Below, in pieces: positions 4,323 through 61,447 of a stretch of DNA of 64,000 bases. The DNA comes from Nanobdellota archaeon. Lineage in GTDB: Archaea > Nanobdellota > Nanobdellia > UBA10117 > ARS21. The notes beneath the pieces were generated by a model. The model saw only the letters and a program-made list of their open reading frames with translations, did no database searches and had not been told where the DNA came from. The position numbers were made by a program, and so were the translations under genes. The stretch is taken from assembly GCA_014239585.1 (NCBI GenBank), contig JAAZYP010000001.1:111421-175420 (forward strand). The letters run 5' to 3'. Each line of letters starts with the position of its first letter. Positions within the stretch are counted from its first letter, which is position 1.

Positions 4323-6194
4323 CTACTTTATCTTATATCCTGAAATATGAATTGTGTCCCAGAACCAACCTTTATCGACCTCATAAGAAACATGAAAACC
4401 GTGTTTTCTAAATCTCAAAATTAAATCGTGTCGATTTCTTAACCAATCTGGCGCCCTGAATAATTTGAATACTCGATCATAATCGATGAAATAAATCCTT
4501 CCGCGATGTACAACTCGTTTACTCAGTTCATCCAATAATTTATCTGGTTCACCAGTATAACCCAATAATCCAATTGATGTTGCACCATGAATACTCTTTA
4601 TTTTTTGATGTAAATTTGTTCTATCATCCGAATCTTCTCTAATAAATTCAATATTGTTTAATCTATGTTTCATTGCGAGTTTATGTGCATTTTTTAAATC
4701 TCCTTCTGAAACATCTGTAGCCAAAATAGTTCCATTTTCGCCAACAATTTCAGCAAGTTCTTTAGCGAGTACACCGGCACTAGCACCCATGTTTAAGATC
4801 TTACGATCTCTAAAATCTCCAAAAAATGCTAAAATATGTTTGTGCGTCCGAGGTTTTACAAAAAAGTTATATGATAATTTTCTAAAACCTGAAGACCAAT
4901 TAAGCATGCCTTCCAATATTGAGGATTTACTTTCAATACTTTTCATAAGATATAATGGAATTCCAATAAATGCAAACATCGCGCCAGTCATAATTGTTGG
5001 AATTTCAATGCCGCCCATCAAAAACATTAAGGTCAATCCGACAAAGATTGGAAGAACTTTACCGAACGGAACTCTAAATTTACGTTCACGATGGGGGTCA
5101 GTAAATCTTAAGATCGATACACTCATTACGACCATCGTATACATAAAGATTGCTAGCGGAAGAATCATTTCAAGTAGCAACTCATAACTACCCGATAATA
5201 TTATCAGTCCACTTAATATTGCTTGAAGCAAGATTGCGATGTGGGGAGTTTGAAATCGAGGATGAATTTTTCCCAACGAACTAGGTAAAAGTCCGTCTCG
5301 TGCTAATGCAAAGATTAATCTCGGTGCAGTAATAATCCATGCTGCAGCACCGCCAAAAATATTCAGAAAAATTAATCCGCTAATAATTAATGCACCAGTA
5401 CTACCCATTATAACTTCTGCAACATCAGTTAAGGGTGCACTACTACTTGCTAATACATCGTGCGGAACTGCACCTAATGCGATAGAAACAACACCAATTG
5501 CTAAAACAATTACTGCAACTGTTGCAATCATCATTACTTTAGGAATTACGTTTGCAGCATCTTTTGTCTCTTCAGCAAGATTTGCAACTGTTTCCCACCC
5601 GAAAAAAGTTTCAAGAATGTATACCATTGCTATAACTATTGATACTTTTGGAAATACATCTAAGAATTGAAGTTTTGAAACATCAAAATAATAAATTCCC
5701 CAACTCATTAATGTCCAAAGACTCATAATTGTTACAATTGAAAATATTAATAGGACTTTAACCGATAAGTCGATACCTTTGAAAGAAACAAAATTTACTA
5801 AGGCTACAATCAATAACGCGAGTATAATTTTTGTAGTGTGACTCATATCTATAAATACTGCAAGATATTCTAAACATCCAATCGAAAGCATGGCTATAGT
5901 TACATTTGCAACAATCCATGAAATCCATCCAACCATAAATCCGCCAAATTCACCAAATGCTTGTTTAGTATATTCGTAAACACCACCTGATTTTGGAAAC
6001 ATGCTTACTAACTCGGCAAAACATGCTGCAACTAATAATGCTAATATTCCAACTAAAATCCAAGATATTATTGAGGCAGGTCCTGCAATTCTTGCCGCAA
6101 TACCTGGAACAAAGAAAATTCCGGTACCAATTATTGCATTTATTGCCAAAAGTACTAAAACACTGAAAGATATGGATTTCTTTAATTCGGCCAC
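4323..6194 (-). CDS. APC-family amino-acid permease fused to a C-terminal class I SAM-methyltransferase-like domain
   Basis: Residues 1-430 have about 12 TM helices typical of APC permeases. The C-terminal 190 aa carry ILNMGASAGVLAKELA (motif I-like), ILATDVSEGD (motif II-like) and GRIYFID (Rossmann MTase pattern). Confidence 0.7.
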   Translation of the reverse strand: MAELKKSISFSVLVLLAINAIIGTGIFFVPGIAARIAGPASIISWILVGILALLVAACFAELVSMFPKSGGVYEYTKQAFGEFGGFMVGWISWIVANVTIAMLSIGCLEYLAVFIDMSHTTKIILALLIVALVNFVSFKGIDLSVKVLLIFSIVTIMSLWTLMSWGIYYFDVSKLQFLDVFPKVSIVIAMVYILETFFGWETVANLAEETKDAANVIPKVMMIATVAVIVLAIGVVSIALGAVPHDVLASSSAPLTDVAEVIMGSTGALIISGLIFLNIFGGAAAWIITAPRLIFALARDGLLPSSLGKIHPRFQTPHIAILLQAILSGLIILSGSYELLLEMILPLAIFMYTMVVMSVSILRFTDPHRERKFRVPFGKVLPIFVGLTLMFLMGGIEIPTIMTGAMFAFIGIPLYLMKSIESKSSILEGMLNWSSGFRKLSYNFFVKPRTHKHILAFFGDFRDRKILNMGASAGVLAKELAEIVGENGTILATDVSEGDLKNAHKLAMKHRLNNIEFIREDSDDRTNLHQKIKSIHGATSIGLLGYTGEPDKLLDELSKRVVHRGRIYFIDYDRVFKLFRAPDWLRNRHDLILRFRKHGFHVSYEVDKGWFWDTIHISGYKIK

Positions 6195-32342: not shown

Positions 32343-32876
32343 ATGACCTCGGGAATTAGAGCAATAGATATTATGAGTCATAAAGTTGTTACAGCAAATA
32401 CAAATATGACTATTTTTGAAGCAGCCAAATTAATGAATAAACATCGGATCGGCGGATTACCCGTTTGTGACGGTGACGAATTATTAGGATTATTAACTGA
32501 ACGAGATATTATGATGAAAGTTATCGCAGCAGATAAACATCCTTCAAAAACAACAGTCAAACAAGTTATGAATTCGCCGTTAAAGGCACATGCACAAAAA
32601 TTTGAAGATATTTCTGAACTTGCTCGAAAAATGAATGAACACGATATTTCCAGAGTTCCGATATTACATGAAGGAAAGTTAGTCGGAATTGTTACAAACA
32701 AAGATATACTGGAACACGCACCTCACTTACTTGAAACGTTTTTAGAGAGAGGACGAATATCTGCAAAAGGTAAACCTGAACATCCTGAAGCATTCGGAGT
32801 CTGCGAGATGTGTAATTTATCGGGACATTTACATTATAGTTCAAATAATGGATTTATTTGTGATGAATGTTTATAA
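32343..32876 (+). CDS. CBS-pair domain protein with C-terminal zinc ribbon
   Basis: Two CBS motifs (HRIGGLPVCD, ISRVPILHEGKLVGIVTNKD) plus C-terminal CEMC...CDEC. Confidence 0.7.
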   Translation: MTSGIRAIDIMSHKVVTANTNMTIFEAAKLMNKHRIGGLPVCDGDELLGLLTERDIMMKVIAADKHPSKTTVKQVMNSPLKAHAQKFEDISELARKMNEHDISRVPILHEGKLVGIVTNKDILEHAPHLLETFLERGRISAKGKPEHPEAFGVCEMCNLSGHLHYSSNNGFICDECL

Positions 32877-33614
32877 CACATTAATTAAATTTCTTAATCC
32901 TTGCGCCAGACCCAATACAAAAATAGATATAATAATTAATTTAGATAATTTTGATTTATCCCCATTTAGATAATAAATTACAGGAATAATAATAATCAAT
33001 TTTGCAGGTATAAACGCTAAAGGTGTTCCAAAAAAATCAATTACTGCACGCGGAATAACATGTTTTTCAAATCCACCAAAGAATAACAGAATAAATCCCG
33101 TGTTTAATGCATCAAATAATTGTGCAGTTAAAGCATAATTTGAAATTTTTGAAAAATTTAATGATTTTGTCCAACTTAATAATAATTTTGAAGCAAAAAT
33201 TGTTAATACTAAAATAAAAATCAAGTATGATTTAATTGAGAAACTAATACCATAAATTAATAAAAAAGAAATTAATGAAAGTAGACCTAATTCTTTCAAT
33301 TTACCGAATAATAGTCCGATCATGAATAATGAAGCCAAAGTTAGATATAATCCTGGGCTAACTGTAAAAAATGTCTTTTCAATTAAACCTTTATCAACAT
33401 AAGATCTCATTAATGCACCAAATATAATGTAAGGTACAAGATTTCTAACAAAAATTATATCCAATTTTATTTTTTTATGTTTGATAAAATACTTGATAAA
33501 ATAAATCCCTAAAAATGCAAATAACCCATAAGTAATAGTATTAACTAAATTATATTCATATATTCCGTTGAAAGGTAAAATAAAATATTTATTTAGAAGT
33601 TCTAGAAATGCCAT
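32871..33614 (-). CDS. polytopic membrane protein (DUF63-like?)
   Basis: 247 aa, 7-8 TM helices. Confidence 0.5.
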   Translation of the reverse strand: MAFLELLNKYFILPFNGIYEYNLVNTITYGLFAFLGIYFIKYFIKHKKIKLDIIFVRNLVPYIIFGALMRSYVDKGLIEKTFFTVSPGLYLTLASLFMIGLLFGKLKELGLLSLISFLLIYGISFSIKSYLIFILVLTIFASKLLLSWTKSLNFSKISNYALTAQLFDALNTGFILLFFGGFEKHVIPRAVIDFFGTPLAFIPAKLIIIIPVIYYLNGDKSKLSKLIIISIFVLGLAQGLRNLINVL

Positions 33615-34045
33615 CCTTCATCCTCGTCTTTTTGAGTTGTTGGCGCAGGAGAAGTTTGTTCTTGAGTTTGTTGTTGTGGCGATTGATAAGGATTAAATTG
33701 TGGTTGAGTCGGTTGCGACTGAACTTGTACTGGTTTTGCCGTAGTAGAATGTTTTTGTTCAAGCGAATTAACTCGCTGAGATAATCCATCTAAACTAGAT
33801 TTCATAGTTTCTACTTTTGAAACCAATAAATTCAAAGTTGATTGAATGGAACTTAATTGAGAATTATTTTCAGTCACCGGATTGGATACAGGCATAGTTG
33901 GGCTAGAGTGTTCTGGAGTCATAATCGGTTCGGAATCAAAAGATGGTCCAGGCACAGAAGATGTTCTTGATCCCAAAGAATCACCAAATTCAGGAAAATC
34001 TTCTTTATTTTTTTTTAAAGGATTTAGTTTATCAAAAATAGCCAT
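33602..34045 (-). CDS. coiled-coil protein with Q/P/T-rich low-complexity tail
   Basis: 147 aa; stop overlaps the downstream membrane gene by 13 nt. A coiled-coil heptad segment is followed by a Q/P/T-rich tail. Confidence 0.45.
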   Translation of the reverse strand: MAIFDKLNPLKKNKEDFPEFGDSLGSRTSSVPGPSFDSEPIMTPEHSSPTMPVSNPVTENNSQLSSIQSTLNLLVSKVETMKSSLDGLSQRVNSLEQKHSTTAKPVQVQSQPTQPQFNPYQSPQQQTQEQTSPAPTTQKDEDEGWHF

Positions 34046-34104: not shown

Positions 34105-35562
34105 TTGAATGGAATTATGATTATGTCAGATCATCCTCTCGGTAAAGCTGTGTTCGAAACCGAAATTCATTACGAAAATTTTCAAGAAGGTATTGAAAAA
34201 TTTTATTTTACGGTTATAGATATAGTTGAAAACAGTTTAGGATATGAAATAAATAAAACTGAAGATCAATTTTTGACATCACCCGGTTCCGCACAATGGC
34301 AAGTTTTTGAGCAACGAAAAGCTGCTCAACAAGAAAAAGCCGCTCAATATCTTGCAAATATTGGTCGAATGACTAAAGATATGATGGTACTTTATCGCGA
34401 ATTAAAGATTCAGGATGAAAGATTGGGATTTTATAAAAAATCAAATGACGGTGATAAAGCTGCAGAAATTTCACTGAAAACACTGTATGTTGATCTTGTT
34501 CAAGGTGGTGCTAAAGATCCATCATCAGTCTTAGGTTTAGCTCAACATGTCGGATTTGTAACATTACCTGATTTATTTTTCAAGTTGGATATCAAAAAAG
34601 AAGAGGATATAGATAAAATTGTGGAAAAGGTTGAAACAAATACTCAAGTTAAGAACGTATTAAAGCGAGAATTATTCAAATATGCGCGGTGGCGGAATAG
34701 AACATACGATGAGCTGACCACACGTAGACATTTCAATATAAAGTATTTGGCTCAACATTTTAATGTCATCAAAATGTATTTAGAATGGGCAAAACCATAT
34801 TTACATAACGTAACTAACTTAACTCAAAATAGTAAAAATGAAAAATCATATCAAATTTTACAAACTTCAGAAAGTTCAATATCCGATATTGAAGTTGTAT
34901 GTAAGCGTAAAAAAATTGATGCTGCAAAGGATTTTGAATATATTTTTCCAATAATTACAGTTACATTTCATCATCGAACTCGTCCAGTTATGGCATATCA
35001 GGGACAGGAATACAGTAAGGGCGCAATTCAATTAGGGCGAATTGAATGTGAAATGAAAGGATTTAATCTAACTGAAACTGAATATAAGAATTATCTTGAT
35101 AAGAAGGAAAAGGATATACTTGAACTCTTATCTTCAGTCGATGAATCGATGAAAGTATTTTTGAATGATTCCAATTCGAAAAAAGATTTTGAGGCATATT
35201 TAGCAGAAGCACGTGAAGAAAACAAAGCTGACAAAGATAAAACCAAAAAATCAGGATCAATTTTAGATATGTTTCGATTCGGAGGCAAGAAAAAATCAAA
35301 AACTAAAGAAAAATCAGATTATACACCATTTATTGATGATTATCGAAAAGAAGATAAAAAAGCAGATAAAATTAAAAAAGAAGTAACTAGTTTTATAATT
35401 TCAAAACTTCGTAAAAAACATAAATTATCGTTAGTTAAATCTGAAAAAATTTTAAAAAAATATAATGAAGACAAGGCATTATCTAAAAATTCAGTTAAAA
35501 GTAATTTAGAAGTTCTATATGATATTATAAAAATAAATTATGGAATGATTCGAAATGAGTAG
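34105..35562 (+). CDS. hypothetical protein, first gene of 4-gene plus-strand operon
   Basis: 485 aa, no recognisable motif; stop overlaps the next ORF by 8 nt. Confidence 0.55.
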   Translation: MNGIMIMSDHPLGKAVFETEIHYENFQEGIEKFYFTVIDIVENSLGYEINKTEDQFLTSPGSAQWQVFEQRKAAQQEKAAQYLANIGRMTKDMMVLYRELKIQDERLGFYKKSNDGDKAAEISLKTLYVDLVQGGAKDPSSVLGLAQHVGFVTLPDLFFKLDIKKEEDIDKIVEKVETNTQVKNVLKRELFKYARWRNRTYDELTTRRHFNIKYLAQHFNVIKMYLEWAKPYLHNVTNLTQNSKNEKSYQILQTSESSISDIEVVCKRKKIDAAKDFEYIFPIITVTFHHRTRPVMAYQGQEYSKGAIQLGRIECEMKGFNLTETEYKNYLDKKEKDILELLSSVDESMKVFLNDSNSKKDFEAYLAEAREENKADKDKTKKSGSILDMFRFGGKKKSKTKEKSDYTPFIDDYRKEDKKADKIKKEVTSFIISKLRKKHKLSLVKSEKILKKYNEDKALSKNSVKSNLEVLYDIIKINYGMIRNE

Positions 35563-36013
35563 ATTTTTAGAATTAAAAAAACAATTAACTTTACTTGACC
35601 CATTTATTCGGTTGAAGCGAATAAAGGAAATTTTAGTTCATGTAAAATCAAAAAAAGCGCGTAAAGAATTGATTGATCTTGCAAGAATTGCAATATATCA
35701 ACTAAATCGAGTAAGAGAAGGAGAAGAACGTTCAAGTTTAGATTCAAAAATTACTGAAAATATATCTGATGATAAATTATCTGCAAAAATTGAACGAACG
35801 ATTGAAGAAATTGCTGAAGAAGAAAGTACATTAATTCAAAAATCTGAAGATCAAGAAATGAAAGGTCATGATTCACAAAAAAATGAATCTCCTGAAAATA
35901 TATATGGTCTAAATTCAAAAACTGATTCAGACGATTTTTATAAATCTACGAAATCAGATACATTTTATGCGTCTCCCGAAGAGGATAAAAAGGAGAAACG
36001 ATTATATTTCTAA
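35555..36013 (+). CDS. hypothetical acidic protein
   Basis: 152 aa; its stop abuts the ATG of the next gene with no gap. Confidence 0.45.
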   Translation: MSRFLELKKQLTLLDPFIRLKRIKEILVHVKSKKARKELIDLARIAIYQLNRVREGEERSSLDSKITENISDDKLSAKIERTIEEIAEEESTLIQKSEDQEMKGHDSQKNESPENIYGLNSKTDSDDFYKSTKSDTFYASPEEDKKEKRLYF

Positions 36014-37885
36014 ATGGGCGAAAATTGTCACGATCATGATACGCCAGAAATACCTGGATACTGGCATTCAATGGATAGCAATCCAAGTCAATATACTGGA
36101 GATAAATTTTCAGCAGGACAATTATCGATTTCCACACCTCCATTCAAAAATCAATTAGATAGTATTCGTACTCGAATTATGCAAGGTGCAACTAATGTTG
36201 AACTTGGTTTTACTGGAACTGGAAAAGGAACGGGTCAAAATTTAACTCCGGGAACACTGGGAATTCCCGAACGTATTGCAATTAAGGAGATTGCAAAAAT
36301 TAACGATGTTGGAATTAACTCAGTTCATTCTGCAATGAGTATACAAGGATTAGCAGGTTTTTCTCAAAATCAATTTAGTGAAGAAAAACGAGCAACTGAT
36401 ATAGAAGAAGTTAAGCGAACAATAGATTTTGCATCAGATGTTACTGATGGGGGTGCAATAGTTGTACATACGGGAGAGTTTCCATATAGCGTTAAACGAA
36501 AATACGGTGATAAGTTATTTACAACAAAAGACGGCAAAAAAATTGAATTATCTGAAGAGTTAGGAAGAGCAGAAACATATCCAATTCTTTTTGTAGATAA
36601 ATATGATGGAAACGTTTCAGGTGGAGTAAGACCGAATTGGACTAGTTTTAGTTTTGACGAAAAAGGTAAAGAACACACTATTAATTTAGATGATATGGAA
36701 AAACTTGCAAAATTTAATTTGGAAAAATATTCTGATAAAAATTTTATAGAAAAAAGTATCGATACATTTGGTAAACATTTGTCAGATAAACGAAAGAAAG
36801 AAATATATGAAAATAAAGAAGGATATGAAAAAACATTAGGAAATAAATATTGGTTAGCACAAGCACATGATTTAGATATATCTTCTAAAGAATCTGAGGC
36901 TAGGCGAGAAGAATATACGTTACGTGTAAATGAAGCTGCCGACAGATTAACTAAATTACATTCAGACATTGAAGCCAGAAAAAAAATAAAGAAAAATATT
37001 CCTAAAAATCGTTTTATTCCACACGATATTTCTGAAGTAAAAATTTCAGAATTGGAAGAAGATTATAAGAAATTATCATATCAGCAAAAACTTGATGAAA
37101 TGCATCGTCAAAGTTATACTTTAGCTCAAGCCGAGAAAGAAAAAAAGATATTTGATATGATTCCGATTGAAGATTATGGTAAACAACAAACTTCGAAATC
37201 TATTGCTGAATTAGCAATACATGCTCAAAAAATGACAAAAGAAAAAAACCTTAAAAAACCATTATTTGTTGCACCAGAAAATTTATGGGGAGGCGAATAT
37301 GGTGCTCACCCTGAAGATTTAAAACAGATAATAAATAATGCGCGATCACAGTTTGTTAAAAATGTGACTGATAACAAAACTATGTCTGAAAATGAAGCAA
37401 AAATTGCAGCAAAAGATCATATTAAAGCAACATTCGATATAGGTCATGCAAATATTTGGAGAAAATATTTTGGTGGGAATGATAACGAGTTCAAACAATG
37501 GTTGGGAAATGAAGTGAATAAACTAACAAAAGAAGGAATTATTGGGCATGTTCATGTTTCAGATAATTTCGGATATAATGATGAACATTTACCTCCAGGC
37601 TATGGTAATGCACCGATAAAGGAATTTATGACTCATTTGGAAAAGGGAAAATATAAAGGTGAAATAATTATCGAACCCGGACATCATGATATTCAATCCT
37701 ATAATTTGGGAATGAAACATTTAGAAACACCTATATATCGGATTCACAATAAGACCAGTACTTGGACAGATGTTGCAGGGTCTTATTTTGGAAAATCTCA
37801 TACTTATGGGTATATTACACCCCAATATCTTCCATCGCAAGATAAAAATCAAGCTTTTACTTGGTCAGAACTTCCATTGGAGTGA
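36014..37885 (+). CDS. xylose-isomerase-like TIM-barrel (AP-endonuclease-2/EndoIV family) protein with ~340-aa coiled-coil insertion
   Basis: Family motifs in order: SVHSAMS, AIVVHTGEF, then after a long coiled-coil insert FVAPENLWG (catalytic E of the lENt motif), FDIGHANIW (DxxH), GHVHVSDNFGYNDEHLPPGYGNAPI (HxxD...DxHLxPGxG), IIIEPGH (final E). Confidence 0.6.
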   Translation: MGENCHDHDTPEIPGYWHSMDSNPSQYTGDKFSAGQLSISTPPFKNQLDSIRTRIMQGATNVELGFTGTGKGTGQNLTPGTLGIPERIAIKEIAKINDVGINSVHSAMSIQGLAGFSQNQFSEEKRATDIEEVKRTIDFASDVTDGGAIVVHTGEFPYSVKRKYGDKLFTTKDGKKIELSEELGRAETYPILFVDKYDGNVSGGVRPNWTSFSFDEKGKEHTINLDDMEKLAKFNLEKYSDKNFIEKSIDTFGKHLSDKRKKEIYENKEGYEKTLGNKYWLAQAHDLDISSKESEARREEYTLRVNEAADRLTKLHSDIEARKKIKKNIPKNRFIPHDISEVKISELEEDYKKLSYQQKLDEMHRQSYTLAQAEKEKKIFDMIPIEDYGKQQTSKSIAELAIHAQKMTKEKNLKKPLFVAPENLWGGEYGAHPEDLKQIINNARSQFVKNVTDNKTMSENEAKIAAKDHIKATFDIGHANIWRKYFGGNDNEFKQWLGNEVNKLTKEGIIGHVHVSDNFGYNDEHLPPGYGNAPIKEFMTHLEKGKYKGEIIIEPGHHDIQSYNLGMKHLETPIYRIHNKTSTWTDVAGSYFGKSHTYGYITPQYLPSQDKNQAFTWSELPLE

Positions 37886-37916: not shown

Positions 37917-38726
37917 TTGATTATGCGGTTTAGAGTTAATAAACGTAAGGTAAATTTTGAGTCAAAATATCCTAAACAAGACAGAGATTTAGCAAAGAAA
38001 TTTAGCAAATTAATATATAGTGAATTAGGCGATTTTATTAGCGCAGTGGTGTTATTTGGTTCTGCAGCAAAAGGAACATCAAAAAAGGAAAGTGATGTTG
38101 ATATTCTAATTATCATCGATGATGTACACATCGATTTATCAAAAGAAATAGTCGAAACATACAGAATTTTAATACAAAAAGCAGTTGCAAAAGTAAATCC
38201 AAAAAGACTTCATGTTCAATCATTAAAATTAACTGCATTTTGGGAATATACTCGTGCAGGAGATCCAGTAGCGATTAATATACTTCGAGATGGAATTGCA
38301 TTTATTGACAGAGGATTTTTTGAACCACTCCAGTTATTATTGTTGAATGGCCGGATCAGACCATCTCAGGAATCTGTTCAAACTTACATAAATATGGCAT
38401 TTTCTAGTTTAAATCGCAGTAAATCTGGAATAGATAGTGCAATTGTGGATCTATATTGGGCATGTATTGATTCAGCACATGCTGCATTAATGAGTCGAGG
38501 AGAAGTTCCAGTTTCACCAGCTCAAGTTGCAGATGAATTAGATAAAAAATTAGTTAAGAACAAACTCTTGGAAAAAAGATATGTTGATATTATGAGTCAT
38601 ATGTATGAATTATCCAAAAAACTTTTACGACGAGATATATCGAATCTATCAGGAAAAGATTACGATAAATATCTAAAATATACTGATGATTTTGTCAGTC
38701 GAATGACTAAAATAATCAAGTCTTAA
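37917..38726 (+). CDS. KNTase-like nucleotidyltransferase (Pol-beta superfamily NTase + helical HEPN-like C-domain)
   Basis: FGSAAKGTSKKESDVDILIIIDD = hG[GS]x(n)[DE]h[DE]h NTase signature. The C-terminal helical domain has R-x6-H (RYVDIMSH); 31 bp downstream of the TIM-barrel gene, same strand. Confidence 0.65.
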   Translation: MIMRFRVNKRKVNFESKYPKQDRDLAKKFSKLIYSELGDFISAVVLFGSAAKGTSKKESDVDILIIIDDVHIDLSKEIVETYRILIQKAVAKVNPKRLHVQSLKLTAFWEYTRAGDPVAINILRDGIAFIDRGFFEPLQLLLLNGRIRPSQESVQTYINMAFSSLNRSKSGIDSAIVDLYWACIDSAHAALMSRGEVPVSPAQVADELDKKLVKNKLLEKRYVDIMSHMYELSKKLLRRDISNLSGKDYDKYLKYTDDFVSRMTKIIKS

Positions 38727-39292
38727 AGACCGTGATTCAATAAGATCGTATAGGGTGTATTTGCCAATGCAGCTAAATCTGCCCGTAAATTATATTGTCT
38801 ATGTGCTCTATCTGTTAGAACACTTAATTGATTAGCAATTTGATCTCTTTCATCGGGTGTCGCAGTAGTATGATATTCATTAATATGATCTTGAACTGTA
38901 AGTAACATATCGGATCGATTTAAATTTAAAATTTGATCTGTGTTAATTCTTTGAGCTAAACCTTTTCCGTTCGATAATGCAAATGAAGCTATTCTTTCTC
39001 GTCTTGTTCGAGTATCATCAAATAATTGATCTGTACCAACTTGATACATTTGACCAATCATCGCTCGCATCGTGGATTCAACATGTGCATCTACTGCACC
39101 GTAGTCTACACCAAATCTATTATTCGCAATTCGCGCATTAAGCGTATCGATTGTAGTTGAAACATGATTGTGTGTTCTGGGCGCTACAGTTGTGAAATCT
39201 CTGATTAATCTTGTGAAATGATCATCCAACGTAGTTGTATCTTCATCTCTAATTCTTTGTGTGGTATCCAACATAAAGTTTGGTAGTGCCAT
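38723..39292 (-). CDS. hypothetical lysine-free protein (1 Lys, 0 Cys, 0 Trp in 189 aa)
   Basis: Uninterrupted 189-codon ORF with host-like AT-rich codons but composition dominated by T/R/D/N/A/L/H/Q. Convergent with the upstream NTase (4-nt overlap), divergent from the downstream NTase. Confidence 0.5.
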   Translation of the reverse strand: MALPNFMLDTTQRIRDEDTTTLDDHFTRLIRDFTTVAPRTHNHVSTTIDTLNARIANNRFGVDYGAVDAHVESTMRAMIGQMYQVGTDQLFDDTRTRRERIASFALSNGKGLAQRINTDQILNLNRSDMLLTVQDHINEYHTTATPDERDQIANQLSVLTDRAHRQYNLRADLAALANTPYTILLNHGL

Positions 39293-39383: not shown

Positions 39384-41192
39384 ATGAGTGAACAAAATTT
39401 GCCTTCAGATAATGAAAAATTGAAAAAAATGTTTAATAAATTTCAGAAAGAAGACACGTCTAAAGTACTTGATGAAATGAATGCTAAATTAGATTCAGTT
39501 CAAAAGAAAGCTGAAAAAGTTAGAGACTCATTAATTAAAAGACATAAGGATGAAATTTTAGGTACAATTTTAGTTTACAAAAAAACTAAGGAAAATAATG
39601 TTCCCAGATTATTAGTAATCTCGGATATTAAAAAGAAAAATAATAAATTAAAAATTGAACATATTTTGAAAATTGAAAAGGAAGGAAATGCATTATCGAA
39701 AAATGATTTCAAAGTATCCTCCTATTTACTGGAAGAAATTTGGGATTCTGCAGCACGCGGACAGTACGGATTACTTCAAAGCATAGTCTCGGGAAGAATA
39801 TTATATGATCGAGGAGATTGGATCAAATCACTAAAGGCAGTAGAACTTCATAAATTCAGAATGCTTAGAAAATTTGAAAAATATGTTATTTCATATGTTA
39901 TTGCGGGGTCATTAATTCGAGGTGAAGCAAATGAAAATTCAGATGTTGATGTTTCATTAATTATCGATGATACTGATGTTACTCGAACTACTTCTGCAGA
40001 ATTAAAAGCTAGATTGAGAGATATTGCGTTGAAAGAAGCAAGAGATGCAGAACGTGATGCCGGAATTAAAGGAAAGTTAAATGTTCAAGTATGGATTTTA
40101 ACTGATTATTGGATGGGGTTAAGACGTGCTGAACCGATATTTTATACAACTTTGAGAGACGGAATTTCATTATATGATCGGGGAATGTTTGCACCATGGA
40201 AATTAATGCTTAAGAAAGGTATGTTGATTCCGAGTCCAGAATCAATTCGAAGATATATTGATGACGGTAAAAAACATGTGGAACGATTTAATTATAAGTT
40301 TAAATCAATGGCCATGGAAGATTTTTTTTGGGCGTGTATTTATCCAGCTCAAGGTTTATTAATGCTTCAAGGTATTCCGCCCGGTGCACCGAGTCAAGTT
40401 GCACCTCAGATGAAAGCAAATTTAGTAAAAAAAGGCATTTTGGATATTAAATATGTTAAAATTTTTGAGAAGTTACATAAAATTCGTAAAGATTTAGAAT
40501 ATGGTAAAATAAAATCAGTTTCTCCTGAAGAAATTGTGAATATGGCAAGATCTGCACAAGCGTTTGTTGAAGCGGTAGAAAAAGCTTACAATTCTTTAGA
40601 AAAGCGTAAAGTAAAATCTAAAATTGATGAACTAAAAGATCGAACAAAAAAAGATGTTAAGTTAGTGTTGAAAGTTGCAGGGATTAAATCAAATAAGAAA
40701 AATGTGCGTTCCGCACTTCAGAGTGAACTGATAGATAAAGGTCTTGCACGATCAAAATATACTGAATTAATTGAAAAACTAGAGGGATTAGATAAAGAAT
40801 TAACTCCCTTATCCATGATGGATAGTTTAGAATATAATTTGGATACAATTAGAGATGAAACAATAAATATCATAAATTCTGAAAAAGGATTGAATAAAGA
40901 TAAACATCGTTTGACATTAAAATATGGCGCGAAAGATAAACAAAAAATCGCATCAATTTGGCTGTTAAAGAGTATGGCATTTATGATTAAAGATTTATCA
41001 AATCAACAAGCACCAGTTTACAAATATTCCTTCGACGGTACAGGTAGACTATTCGATGAACAAAAATCTTCATTAAAAGTTCTTGAAAATAAACTTGCAA
41101 CTTATTCTGGAGGAAAGGCTAGAATTACTGCAAAAACAATAAATCAATTAAAGGAAATGTTAGATAAAAATTTGCAATTATTAATTGGCTAA
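39384..41192 (+). CDS. KNTase-like nucleotidyltransferase paralog with N- and C-terminal coiled-coil extensions
   Basis: IAGSLIRGEANENSDVDVSLIIDD NTase signature at about residue 175. The core aligns with the 269-aa paralog (LRDGISLYDRGMFAP vs LRDGIAFIDRGFFEP; FWACIYPAQGLLMLQGIPPGAPSQVAPQM vs YWACIDSAHAALMSRGEVPVSPAQVADEL). Confidence 0.65.
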   Translation: MSEQNLPSDNEKLKKMFNKFQKEDTSKVLDEMNAKLDSVQKKAEKVRDSLIKRHKDEILGTILVYKKTKENNVPRLLVISDIKKKNNKLKIEHILKIEKEGNALSKNDFKVSSYLLEEIWDSAARGQYGLLQSIVSGRILYDRGDWIKSLKAVELHKFRMLRKFEKYVISYVIAGSLIRGEANENSDVDVSLIIDDTDVTRTTSAELKARLRDIALKEARDAERDAGIKGKLNVQVWILTDYWMGLRRAEPIFYTTLRDGISLYDRGMFAPWKLMLKKGMLIPSPESIRRYIDDGKKHVERFNYKFKSMAMEDFFWACIYPAQGLLMLQGIPPGAPSQVAPQMKANLVKKGILDIKYVKIFEKLHKIRKDLEYGKIKSVSPEEIVNMARSAQAFVEAVEKAYNSLEKRKVKSKIDELKDRTKKDVKLVLKVAGIKSNKKNVRSALQSELIDKGLARSKYTELIEKLEGLDKELTPLSMMDSLEYNLDTIRDETINIINSEKGLNKDKHRLTLKYGAKDKQKIASIWLLKSMAFMIKDLSNQQAPVYKYSFDGTGRLFDEQKSSLKVLENKLATYSGGKARITAKTINQLKEMLDKNLQLLIG

Positions 41193-61336: not shown

Positions 61337-61447
61337 GCCTCGGTAGCTCAGTTTGGTAGAGCGCTGCATTGGTAACGCAAAGAATCCTTCGCGGATTGGC
61401 TTGCGCCAATAATGCAGAGGCCGCGAGTTCAAATCCCGCCTGGGGCA
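61337..61447 (+). tRNA. tRNA-Thr (anticodon GGT) with 37-nt intron at canonical 37/38 position
   Basis: Acceptor GCCUCGG/CUGGGGC (two G-U pairs), D-arm AGCUCAGUUUGGUAGAGC, anticodon stem CUGCA...UGCAG interrupted by intron 61375..61411, T-loop UUCAAAU. Confidence 0.7.

Follow-up and report, generated by a model that had tools for sequence, protein, structure and literature searches.

A gene was identified in the window, a stretch of 64,000 nucleotides of Nanobdellota DNA, whose 623-aa product is predicted to be a xylose-isomerase-like (PF01261) TIM-barrel metalloenzyme with a complete, MJ1311-like barrel. This barrel is split by a large insertion in the β4-α4 loop, and a long helical hairpin, here called the tower, is part of the insertion. 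The best explanation overall, to which we assign a probability of about 0.45, is that the protein acts as a tri-metal phosphoesterase and that the tower docks partner proteins; we infer both the chemistry and the docking.

The gene had been placed in this fold in an earlier note, made from the sequence alone, and all motifs listed there (SVHS, AIVVHTGEF, APENLWG, FDIGHANIW, GHVHVSDN..DEHLPPGYG and IIIEPGH) were found in the correct order. A search of the 623-aa protein with PF01261 resulted in a match with an E-value of 3.1e-16 and 60.2 bits, compared to a gathering cut-off of 31.1. The match consisted of two stretches with the insert between them, the best of which covered residues 464-567. 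N- and C-terminal parts of the model were matched in the correct order, and a structure predicted with AF2 (pLDDT 87, pTM 0.84) closed a complete (β/α)8 barrel around the insert, with strands at residues 37-40, 61-65, 100-105 and 147-152 before it and at 417-422, 472-475, 510-515 and 551-553 after it. The proposal of a single EndoIV/xylose-isomerase-like barrel was thereby borne out. When the model was compared with known structures using Foldseek, whole compact barrels of 267-289 residues could be aligned across the gap, with TM scores normalised to the target (TMt) of 0.63-0.75. PF01261 is carried by all listed relatives of the protein as well.

The large insertion that the earlier note had described is indeed present, located by the AF2 model in the β4-α4 loop, but it is shorter than the ~340 residues given there. 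The ENL strand, which had been claimed near residue 495, was found at residues 422-424. E155 and E422 are 266 aa apart, and after subtraction of the normal α4 helix (385-410) an insertion of ~230 aa (157-385) is obtained. The insert had also been described as a lysine/glutamate-rich coiled coil. Its enrichment in these residues was confirmed (15.3% K and 11.4% E, compared to 8.1% K and 7.4% E in the barrel), but it is not one long coiled coil. In the AF2 model it is composed of a β-rich subdomain (~170-224), short helices (225-273) and a long antiparallel helical hairpin (278-328 and 341-381), which accounts for ~105 of the ~230 residues; pLDDT values across the tower residue blocks are 89-97. 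The β4-α4 loop is on the catalytic face of the modelled barrel, and the two-helix tower protrudes from it over a length of ~50 residues. In a crude Fourier test for a 3.5-residue hydrophobic periodicity in the two long helices a heptad signal was not clearly detectable, and therefore “helical hairpin” or “tower” is a safer term than canonical coiled coil.

All 51 aligned family members contain an insert between β4 and α4, and the span corresponding to E155-E422 ranges from 195 to 310 aa. The tower is 65-137 aa long and its sequence is poorly conserved across the family, while the helical stretch 241-280 is missing from ~60% of the members. The β-rich subdomain is moderately conserved overall and includes strands 191-224, a conserved YLVD..TG motif and the invariant G199. 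A profile of this subdomain built from 31 sequences identified no relative in the PDB (best E 0.9), and no additional Pfam domain was found in unusually long family members. The C-terminal tail is modelled with low confidence, but W584, Y591, G593 and W617 are conserved across the family and the protein ends in a nearly invariant x-(L/I/F/M)-E-COOH motif, with a terminal E in 77 of 79 proteins.

That the split is an artefact, i.e. an assembly chimera, a frameshift-fused gene pair or two unrelated domains, has a negligible probability. The identical 623-aa protein is encoded on contigs assembled independently from two samples. Full-length relatives are numerous: over 200 were identified at 30-68% identity, at least 469 species genomes carry one, and at the cluster level (50% identity, E<=1e-30) they make up 594 clusters. 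The two halves, for which an origin from unrelated families had been considered in the earlier note together with a chimeric assembly, both belong to PF01261, where they match the corresponding parts of one model, and AF2 folds them into one barrel. Based on the Pfam order, the AF2 barrel, the independent assemblies and the broad conservation, a chimera or a pair of unrelated halves was rejected.

The named source organisms of the relatives are without exception DPANN archaea, namely Woesearchaeota, Pacearchaeota or Nanoarchaeota. The best 150 representatives are 477-773 aa long, and in the few shorter than ~550 aa the profile match is truncated at the N-terminus. When orthologs without the insertion were searched for among representatives, the best 150 matches all carried the insert, and therefore the boundary of the family lies beyond them. 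Public databases label the members as “TIM barrel protein”, “sugar phosphate isomerase/epimerase” (JGI, several members) or “hypothetical”.

The nine positions that bind the three zinc ions in EndoIV probably correspond in this protein to the candidate ligands H105, H152, E422, D475, H478, H514, D523, H525 and E554. All nine are invariant in 51 diverse members, and in an independent check with 79 proteins from GTDB genomes only H525 deviated (conserved in 78/79). In the AF2 model they sit where the barrel strands end C-terminally, in the order of the EndoIV ligands and on the equivalent structural elements, a geometry judged from strand positions alone. Within this set the E-D-H-E core (E422, D475, H514 and E554) is found at the ends of strands β5 to β8 and is invariant in the 51 + 79 sequences. 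Further invariant residues on the active face are E63, E155 and D517, so that the invariant residues comprise E63, H105, H152 and E155 in the N-terminal barrel half and E422, D475, H478, H514, D517, D523, H525 and E554 in the C-terminal half. The mean column identity of the family alignment is 33%.

The barrel gene is part of a conserved module with the order 480-aa protein, small charged helical protein, barrel protein and Pol-beta-type nucleotidyltransferase (Table 1). The 480-aa partner is encoded upstream, on the same strand as the barrel gene, in 52 of 68 testable loci, and its homologues have pairwise identities of 33-51%. Its AF2 model (pLDDT 73) contains long helices (65-114 and 180-239) and a long β-hairpin sheet. 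No match to the protein was found in Pfam, NCBIfam, PADLOC, PHROG or PDB sequences, and a Foldseek search of the model against PDB and BFVD gave no significant match. The ORF of the small protein begins before the partner gene has ended, with an overlap of 8 nt at the stop, and it is followed without a gap by the ATG of the barrel gene. At this position a same-strand ORF of 138-293 aa is present in at least 37 of 55 loci; these positional homologues have an N-terminal motif in common, and their HMM matches the protein of the window with an E-value of 9e-17. The nucleotidyltransferase gene begins 31 nt after the barrel gene. Of 70 testable loci, 46 have it as the next gene downstream and 56 have it somewhere in the locus, with identities of 45-90%.

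Table 1. Features of the split-barrel locus (positions in the window).
Feature	Position	Strand	Basis or remark
Upstream partner gene, 485-aa ORF (~480-aa protein)	34105..35562	+	Gene callers start 4-6 codons later
Small highly charged helical protein, 152 aa	35555..36013	+	ORF between partner and barrel genes
Split TIM-barrel protein gene (PF01261) with tower insertion	36014..37885	+	623-aa ORF, Pfam match, AF2 model
N-terminal barrel half (residues 30-156, β1 to β4)	36101..36481	+	AF2 secondary structure, invariant columns
Insertion, first part (residues 157-277)	36482..36844	+	β-rich subdomain and short helices 225-273
Tower, predicted long antiparallel helical hairpin (helices 278-328 and 341-381)	36845..37156	+	AF2 model
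C-terminal barrel half (residues 386-580, α4, β5 to β8)	37169..37753	+	AF2, invariant columns, MJ1311 alignment
C-terminal tail (residues 581-623)	37754..37882	+	AF2 pLDDT 49-60 (low), conserved residues
Pol-beta-type nucleotidyltransferase (NTP_transf_2), 269 aa	37917..38726	+	Pfam E 1.6e-9

A known defence or phage system was considered for the module and rejected, as neither PADLOC nor PHROG gave a match for the barrel protein, its 480-aa partner or the small protein. Only the nucleotidyltransferases match models in these searches, namely as a generic candidate-system NTase. The gene context consists of housekeeping and information processing genes, and sugar-metabolism genes are absent from the conserved module.

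According to the proposed mechanism, the barrel enzyme would cleave or trim a phosphoester, most probably at a nucleic-acid end or lesion, with AP-site cleavage, 3'-phosphatase and 3'-diesterase as candidate activities. Two further steps are proposed with less weight: the β-subdomain may reshape the substrate site, and the tower may serve as a docking arm with an architecture like that of the LSD1 tower, to which CoREST binds. Through this arm the enzyme would be kept in a complex with the 480-aa helical protein, the small charged helical protein or both, after which the downstream Pol-beta-type nucleotidyltransferase might act on the processed end. The earlier note had suggested that the insert works as a scaffold or as an arm for oligomerisation and might couple the enzyme to a partner, which is plausible and is indirectly supported by the conserved operon with two helical proteins. 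A more ambitious version, in which all four module products assemble into an as yet undescribed machine found only in Nanoarchaeota (Woese/Pace lineages), with a tower-held EndoIV-like phosphoesterase that passes ends to the nucleotidyltransferase, is considered speculative and rather unlikely.

The chemistry is contested by a reading of the protein as a sugar or sugar-phosphate epimerase/isomerase of the ketose 3-epimerase or UlaE type, with a single metal on the E-D-H-E core and an insert that modulates oligomerisation or substrate access. After MJ1311, the top Foldseek matches are UlaE and the D-tagatose, psicose and allulose 3-epimerases, and by sequence as well as by Foldseek rank the epimerases score equal to or higher than EndoIV. 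Epimerase chains are also listed in the PDB profile search, although marginally (E 0.045-0.37), where EndoIV is missing, and the JGI name of several members points in the same direction. The NCBIfam fructoselysine 3-epimerase model matches weakly, but its 18.6 bits are far below the cut-off of 305. Ketose 3-epimerases and UlaE use one metal in a four-ligand E-D-H-E site, for which the five extra invariant positions H105, H152, H478, D523 and H525 would be superfluous. Moreover, a nucleotidyltransferase and helical proteins are conserved next to the gene instead of kinases, transporters or other sugar enzymes, and sugar metabolism is very reduced in DPANN genomes of this type, which also counts against an epimerase. 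The barrel protein is probably not a sugar epimerase, and we regard this assignment as unlikely.

For the tower, the same chemistry could be combined with a different role, in which the hairpins of several subunits form a helical bundle as a homo-oligomerisation device and the operon partners are linked functionally but not docked. Both the dimeric state of MJ1311 and the common occurrence of four-helix bundles built from antiparallel hairpins would fit. Tower length, compared as a proxy for docking, showed no correlation with the length of the small ORF or of the partner (Spearman 0.13 and 0.14), which counts against the docking arm, and a poorly conserved tower sequence is in line with a generic packing surface. 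However, homo-oligomerisation does not explain why two helical proteins are so tightly conserved directly upstream, and it is judged an improbable account, to about the same degree as the epimerase. Far less probable is a catalytically dead protein in which an old enzyme fold is reused as a scaffold. A structural assembly might be read from the large helical additions and from the helical proteins that regularly accompany the gene, but the candidate ligands and E63, E155 and D517 are invariant despite the mean identity of 33%, a pattern expected of an active enzyme. The tri-metal phosphoesterase with a docking tower is the preferred reading.

The gene is kept in at least 469 species genomes, always with the large insertion and in most cases together with its three neighbours, although these genomes are very small, and it is therefore likely to be important. 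If the tri-metal reading is true, these archaea would have built an EndoIV-like phosphoesterase into a multi-protein assembly through a tower, an arrangement which to our knowledge has not been described for the TIM-barrel fold of the EndoIV type. It would also provide the first handle on the families of the 480-aa partner and the small charged protein, which are without recognisable relatives. A four-protein machine, if it exists, would represent a lineage-specific repair, end-healing or nucleic-acid-salvage complex in minimal-genome organisms. If the protein were an ordinary sugar epimerase with a decorative insertion, it would be a structural curiosity only.

Among known systems, MJ1311 from Methanocaldococcus jannaschii (PDB 3WQO, “D-tagatose 3-epimerase-like protein”), a protein of uncharacterised activity, has the closest structure solved so far. 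No other PDB chain is significantly similar in sequence (for MJ1311, E 2.9e-6 with the single sequence and 2.4e-10 with the family profile), and MJ1311 is also the top Foldseek match to the barrel model (E 4e-8, TMt 0.69-0.73). It reportedly keeps the nine EndoIV residues and has no obvious DNA-binding groove. The motifs TFDIGHAN and HVH..DN.GY.DEHL..G.GN are common to both proteins, and eight of the nine EndoIV-type ligand positions of the barrel protein align to MJ1311. The significant similarity is limited to the C-terminal third (469-556), and strands β3 and β4 align weakly. Unlike the barrel protein, MJ1311 is a compact protein of ~290 aa with an uninterrupted barrel, and it lacks the β4-α4 insertion, the ~35-aa N-terminal extension and the ~45-aa conserved C-terminal tail. 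In the only paper found to mention MJ1311, it is given as a predicted EndoIV homologue.

Endonuclease IV itself belongs to the same TIM-barrel superfamily (S. aureus, 8EDD; Foldseek E 7e-4, TMt 0.65). The EndoIV-like H-x2-D...D-x-H...G-x-G-N motif after β7 is present in the barrel protein. With hhalign, E. coli Nfo (b2159) could be aligned at low confidence, and in this alignment the Nfo residues H109, E145, D179, H182, H216, D229, H231 and E261 match invariant residues in order and spacing, while the ninth ligand, H69, is not aligned to H105. The insert separates the two proteins, with 36 aa between H109 and E145 in Nfo compared to 270 aa between H152 and E422. Sequence similarity to Nfo was not significant in hhalign with the insert kept or removed (E 0.16-0.2), the NCBIfam nfo model gave no match at E<=0.01, and the PDB profile search with the family retrieved no EndoIV chain at E<=1. 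A literature search found no paper on DPANN together with endonuclease IV.

The ketose 3-epimerases and the L-xylulose-5-phosphate 3-epimerase UlaE (2HK0, 2OU4, 3CQJ) have the same fold (TMt 0.63-0.75; 0.74 for UlaE) and have the E-D-H-E core in common with the barrel protein. They are compact (~290 aa) and lack both the insert and the extra invariant His and Asp residues, whereas the barrel protein, at 623 aa, is extended at its N-terminus, carries a 230-aa insert and ends in a C-terminal tail. For the tower, LSD1/KDM1A offers an architectural analogue only: there, too, a long antiparallel two-helix hairpin projects outward from the middle of a catalytic domain, but that domain is an unrelated amine oxidase fold without homology to the barrel protein. 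LSD1-CoREST structures were found as low-probability Foldseek matches of the barrel model (ranks 29-50), presumably via the tower. In LSD1 it is the tower on which the partner CoREST docks.

In the AlphaFold2 model of the 623-aa barrel protein, calculated from an alignment of 51 diverse relatives (A1; mean pLDDT 87, pTM 0.84), the chain exits the TIM barrel after β4 (VVHTGEF, H152/E155) and re-enters it through helix 385-410, which precedes β5 (APEN, E422). When the model was compared with the PDB using Foldseek, compact barrels aligned as a whole and spanned the insertion gap. These were MJ1311 of M. jannaschii (3WQO; E 4e-8, TM normalised to the target 0.69-0.73), UlaE (E 1e-5 to 1e-4, TM 0.71-0.75), S. 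aureus endonuclease IV (EndoIV; E 7e-4, TM 0.65) and ketose 3-epimerases (TM 0.63-0.67). Therefore, the barrel is predicted to close around the insertion, and the structural interpretation of the earlier note, a barrel split by an insertion, is supported. All motifs quoted there were found in the ORF in the same order, and PF01261 (Pfam, xylose-isomerase-like TIM barrel) was matched with 60.2 bits against a curated threshold of 31.1 bits (E 3.1e-16); the match falls into two parts, as the model is interrupted. It is concluded that the protein is a new architectural variant on an already known enzyme fold.

The observation of an insertion is real in substance, but its coordinates were corrected: the ENL motif is located at residue 422 and not at ~495, and the insertion comprises ~230 aa instead of ~340. 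It contains more lysine and glutamate than the barrel, as had been noticed. Of the proposed long coiled coil, a long helical hairpin could be identified, formed by only ~105 residues; the remainder is not hairpin. Since no clear heptad signal was obtained in a crude periodicity test, the hairpin is named a helical tower and not a proven coiled coil. The model places the insertion on the catalytic face of the barrel. The span E155-E422 measures 195-310 aa in 51 of 51 aligned members, whereas the equivalent span H109-E145 of E. coli EndoIV (Nfo) is 36 aa. Stretch 241-280 is missing from ~60% of the relatives. In unusually long family members the extra length falls within the insertion, and no additional Pfam domain was found in them.

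Features of the barrel protein, its module and the surrounding window
Feature	Window positions	Strand	Residues	Remarks
Partner	34105-35562	+	485 aa	First of four genes
Small protein	35555-36013	+	152 aa	Overlaps partner stop by 8 nt; own stop abuts barrel ATG
Barrel gene	36014-37885	+	623 aa	Third of four genes; uninterrupted
Eight barrel strands			37-40, 61-65, 100-105, 147-152, 417-422, 472-475, 510-515, 551-553	AlphaFold2 model
Insertion, beta-rich subdomain			strands between ~170 and 224	YLVD..TG conserved, G199 invariant
Insertion, short helices			225-273	AlphaFold2 model
Insertion, tower (two long antiparallel helices)			278-328, 341-381	Block pLDDT 89-97
C-terminal tail	37754-37882	+	581-623	Low model confidence yet conserved
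Nucleotidyltransferase	37917-38726	+	269 aa	Begins 31 nt past barrel gene; Pol-beta-type NTP_transf_2 domain (Pfam)
ORF	38723-39292	-	189 aa	No family match
Second nucleotidyltransferase	39384-41192	+	602 aa	Pol-beta-type
DUF63 membrane protein and Q/S/P-rich protein	32871-34045	-	147 aa (Q/S/P-rich protein)	Divergent, upstream of module; Q/S/P-rich protein with helical core
Permease-methyltransferase	4323-6194	-	623 aa; 9-416, 463-573	Amino-acid permease, C-terminal SAM-methyltransferase domain
tRNA	61337-61447	+		Rfam match, 111 nt

Nine residues of the barrel protein (H105, H152, E422, D475, H478, H514, D523, H525 and E554) are invariant in A1. The same holds for 79 proteins taken independently from GTDB loci, where only H525 deviates (78/79). 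In the model, each lies at the C-terminal end of a strand or in the loop following β7. The MJ1311-like barrel is intact and carries an invariant nine-residue His/Asp/Glu constellation. In the tail, W584, G593 and W617 are strongly conserved, and 77 of 79 family members end with x-(L/I/F/M)-Glu-COOH. The tail may fold back onto the active site as a plug or bind a partner as a docking peptide.

An assembly artefact was rejected, as two samples that were assembled independently both yielded contigs encoding the identical protein. A word-indexed search yielded 229 relatives, and among the 120 listed nearly all are 560-670 aa long, with 94-100% query coverage and 31-68% identity. In a full HMMER scan of 1.84 billion representatives, 594 clusters passed a cut-off of E<=1e-30 and 1235 passed E<=1e-3; the 150 best-matching representatives comprise 477-773 aa and most matched end to end. 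With one genome per GTDB species, 469 genomes encode a relative. The best 80 of these are mostly labelled Woesearchaeota, Pacearchaeota or Nanoarchaeota, some merely 'archaeon', and the few odd labels are probably binning errors. Among family-bearing loci L016, L045, L077, L078, L083, L085 and L087, some are labelled 'Marinoscillum sp.' (1.8-kb contig) or 'uncultured Methanosarcinales'. Because the distribution is otherwise exclusively Woese-, Pace- and Nanoarchaeota, such labels seem to reflect errors of binning or labelling and not true hosts.

The four module genes are tightly packed on one strand, and their order was found again in distant relatives. Of the testable loci among 80 from GTDB, 52/68 had the partner in the same orientation and at most 2.5 kb upstream of the barrel gene, and in 46/70 the nucleotidyltransferase started within 600 nt downstream (56/70 at any place in the locus). 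Between the partner and barrel genes, at least 37 of 55 loci contain an ORF of 138-293 aa in the same orientation. These small ORFs are fast-evolving, highly charged and helical, and have a motif at the N-terminus in common, roughly L..L..L.P.ER...LKELL. Some loci lack the small ORF; elsewhere a longer partner ORF (up to ~527 aa) extends as far as the barrel gene, which might reflect a fusion. Conservation is higher in the 269-aa nucleotidyltransferase than in the barrel protein: it shows 45-57% identity in comparisons in which the latter has ~34%. The four-gene module is conserved, and the barrel proteins are a large uncharacterised DPANN family within it. The second nucleotidyltransferase and the divergently oriented 189-aa ORF between the two co-occur only in closer relatives, and the DUF63/147-aa pair is likewise kept in closer relatives (loci L001, L009-L013), not family-wide.

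At two distant loci, the proteins encoded in the same position share 51% and 33% identity with the partner, in whose family many residues are invariant, e.g., LPDLFF and W228..PY. No match was found in Pfam, NCBIfam, PADLOC, PHROGs or PDB sequences. Two helices of 50-60 residues (65-114, 180-239), a long beta-hairpin sheet (280-323) and a conserved C-terminal helix are seen in its AlphaFold2 model (pLDDT 73), for which Foldseek gave nothing significant in either PDB or BFVD. The module holds two families without recognisable relatives.

The window (~31% G+C) also encodes a split RNA polymerase subunit A, TFB, an eRF1-type factor, ribosomal proteins and aminoacyl-tRNA synthetases, and is therefore a housekeeping stretch of archaeal chromosome. 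The tRNA was not reported by ARAGORN (bacterial settings), and its length suggests that it is an intron-containing archaeal tRNA. The permease-methyltransferase is an unusual transporter-enzyme fusion, to which the barrel protein is unrelated despite equal length.

The barrel protein would perform three-metal phosphoester hydrolysis, probably at a nucleic-acid lesion or end; the EndoIV-type ligand set, the neighbouring nucleotidyltransferase gene and the lack of sugar-metabolism genes nearby are consistent with this activity. Fold ranking by Foldseek and weak profile matches instead favor a sugar epimerase, the main rival reading, which however leaves five extra invariant putative ligands and the gene context unexplained. 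The conserved beta-subdomain could extend the substrate site, and the variable-length tower could be a docking or oligomerisation arm, by analogy with the tower architecture of LSD1; LSD1-CoREST structures were among the weak Foldseek matches. Docking is the weakest step of this reading; tower length did not covary with partner or small-ORF length. The earlier proposal of an arm coupling a metal-dependent enzyme to a partner is plausible but unproven. If the module is a distinct nucleic-acid processing complex, the significance of the barrel family would be greater.

In order and spacing, the nine invariant residues match the trinuclear zinc ligands of EndoIV (H69, H109, E145, D179, H182, H216, D229, H231 and E261). 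When an insert-deleted family profile was aligned with E. coli Nfo by permissive hhalign, eight ligands were paired exactly and the pairing of H69 with H105 was not obtained; default settings gave one stretch only (H216/D229/H231/E261 with H514/D523/H525/E554), and neither alignment was significant (E 0.16-0.2). No nfo model was matched in NCBIfam and no EndoIV chain in a PDB profile search; therefore, the protein is not filed as an Nfo family member. Chemically it would work like Nfo, as a putative three-metal phosphoesterase. The sole solved relative by sequence is MJ1311; a search with the single sequence gave E 2.9e-6 and one with the family profile E 2.4e-10, with similarity concentrated in TFDIGHAN and HVH..DN.GY.DEHL..G.GN. 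In its structure, described by Uechi et al. in Acta Cryst F 2014, the nine EndoIV residues are reportedly conserved and a DNA groove is not evident. One study (PMC2770678) lists MJ1311 as the EndoIV homologue predicted for M. jannaschii and demonstrates AP endonuclease activity of PF0258, an archaeal homologue of comparable divergence.
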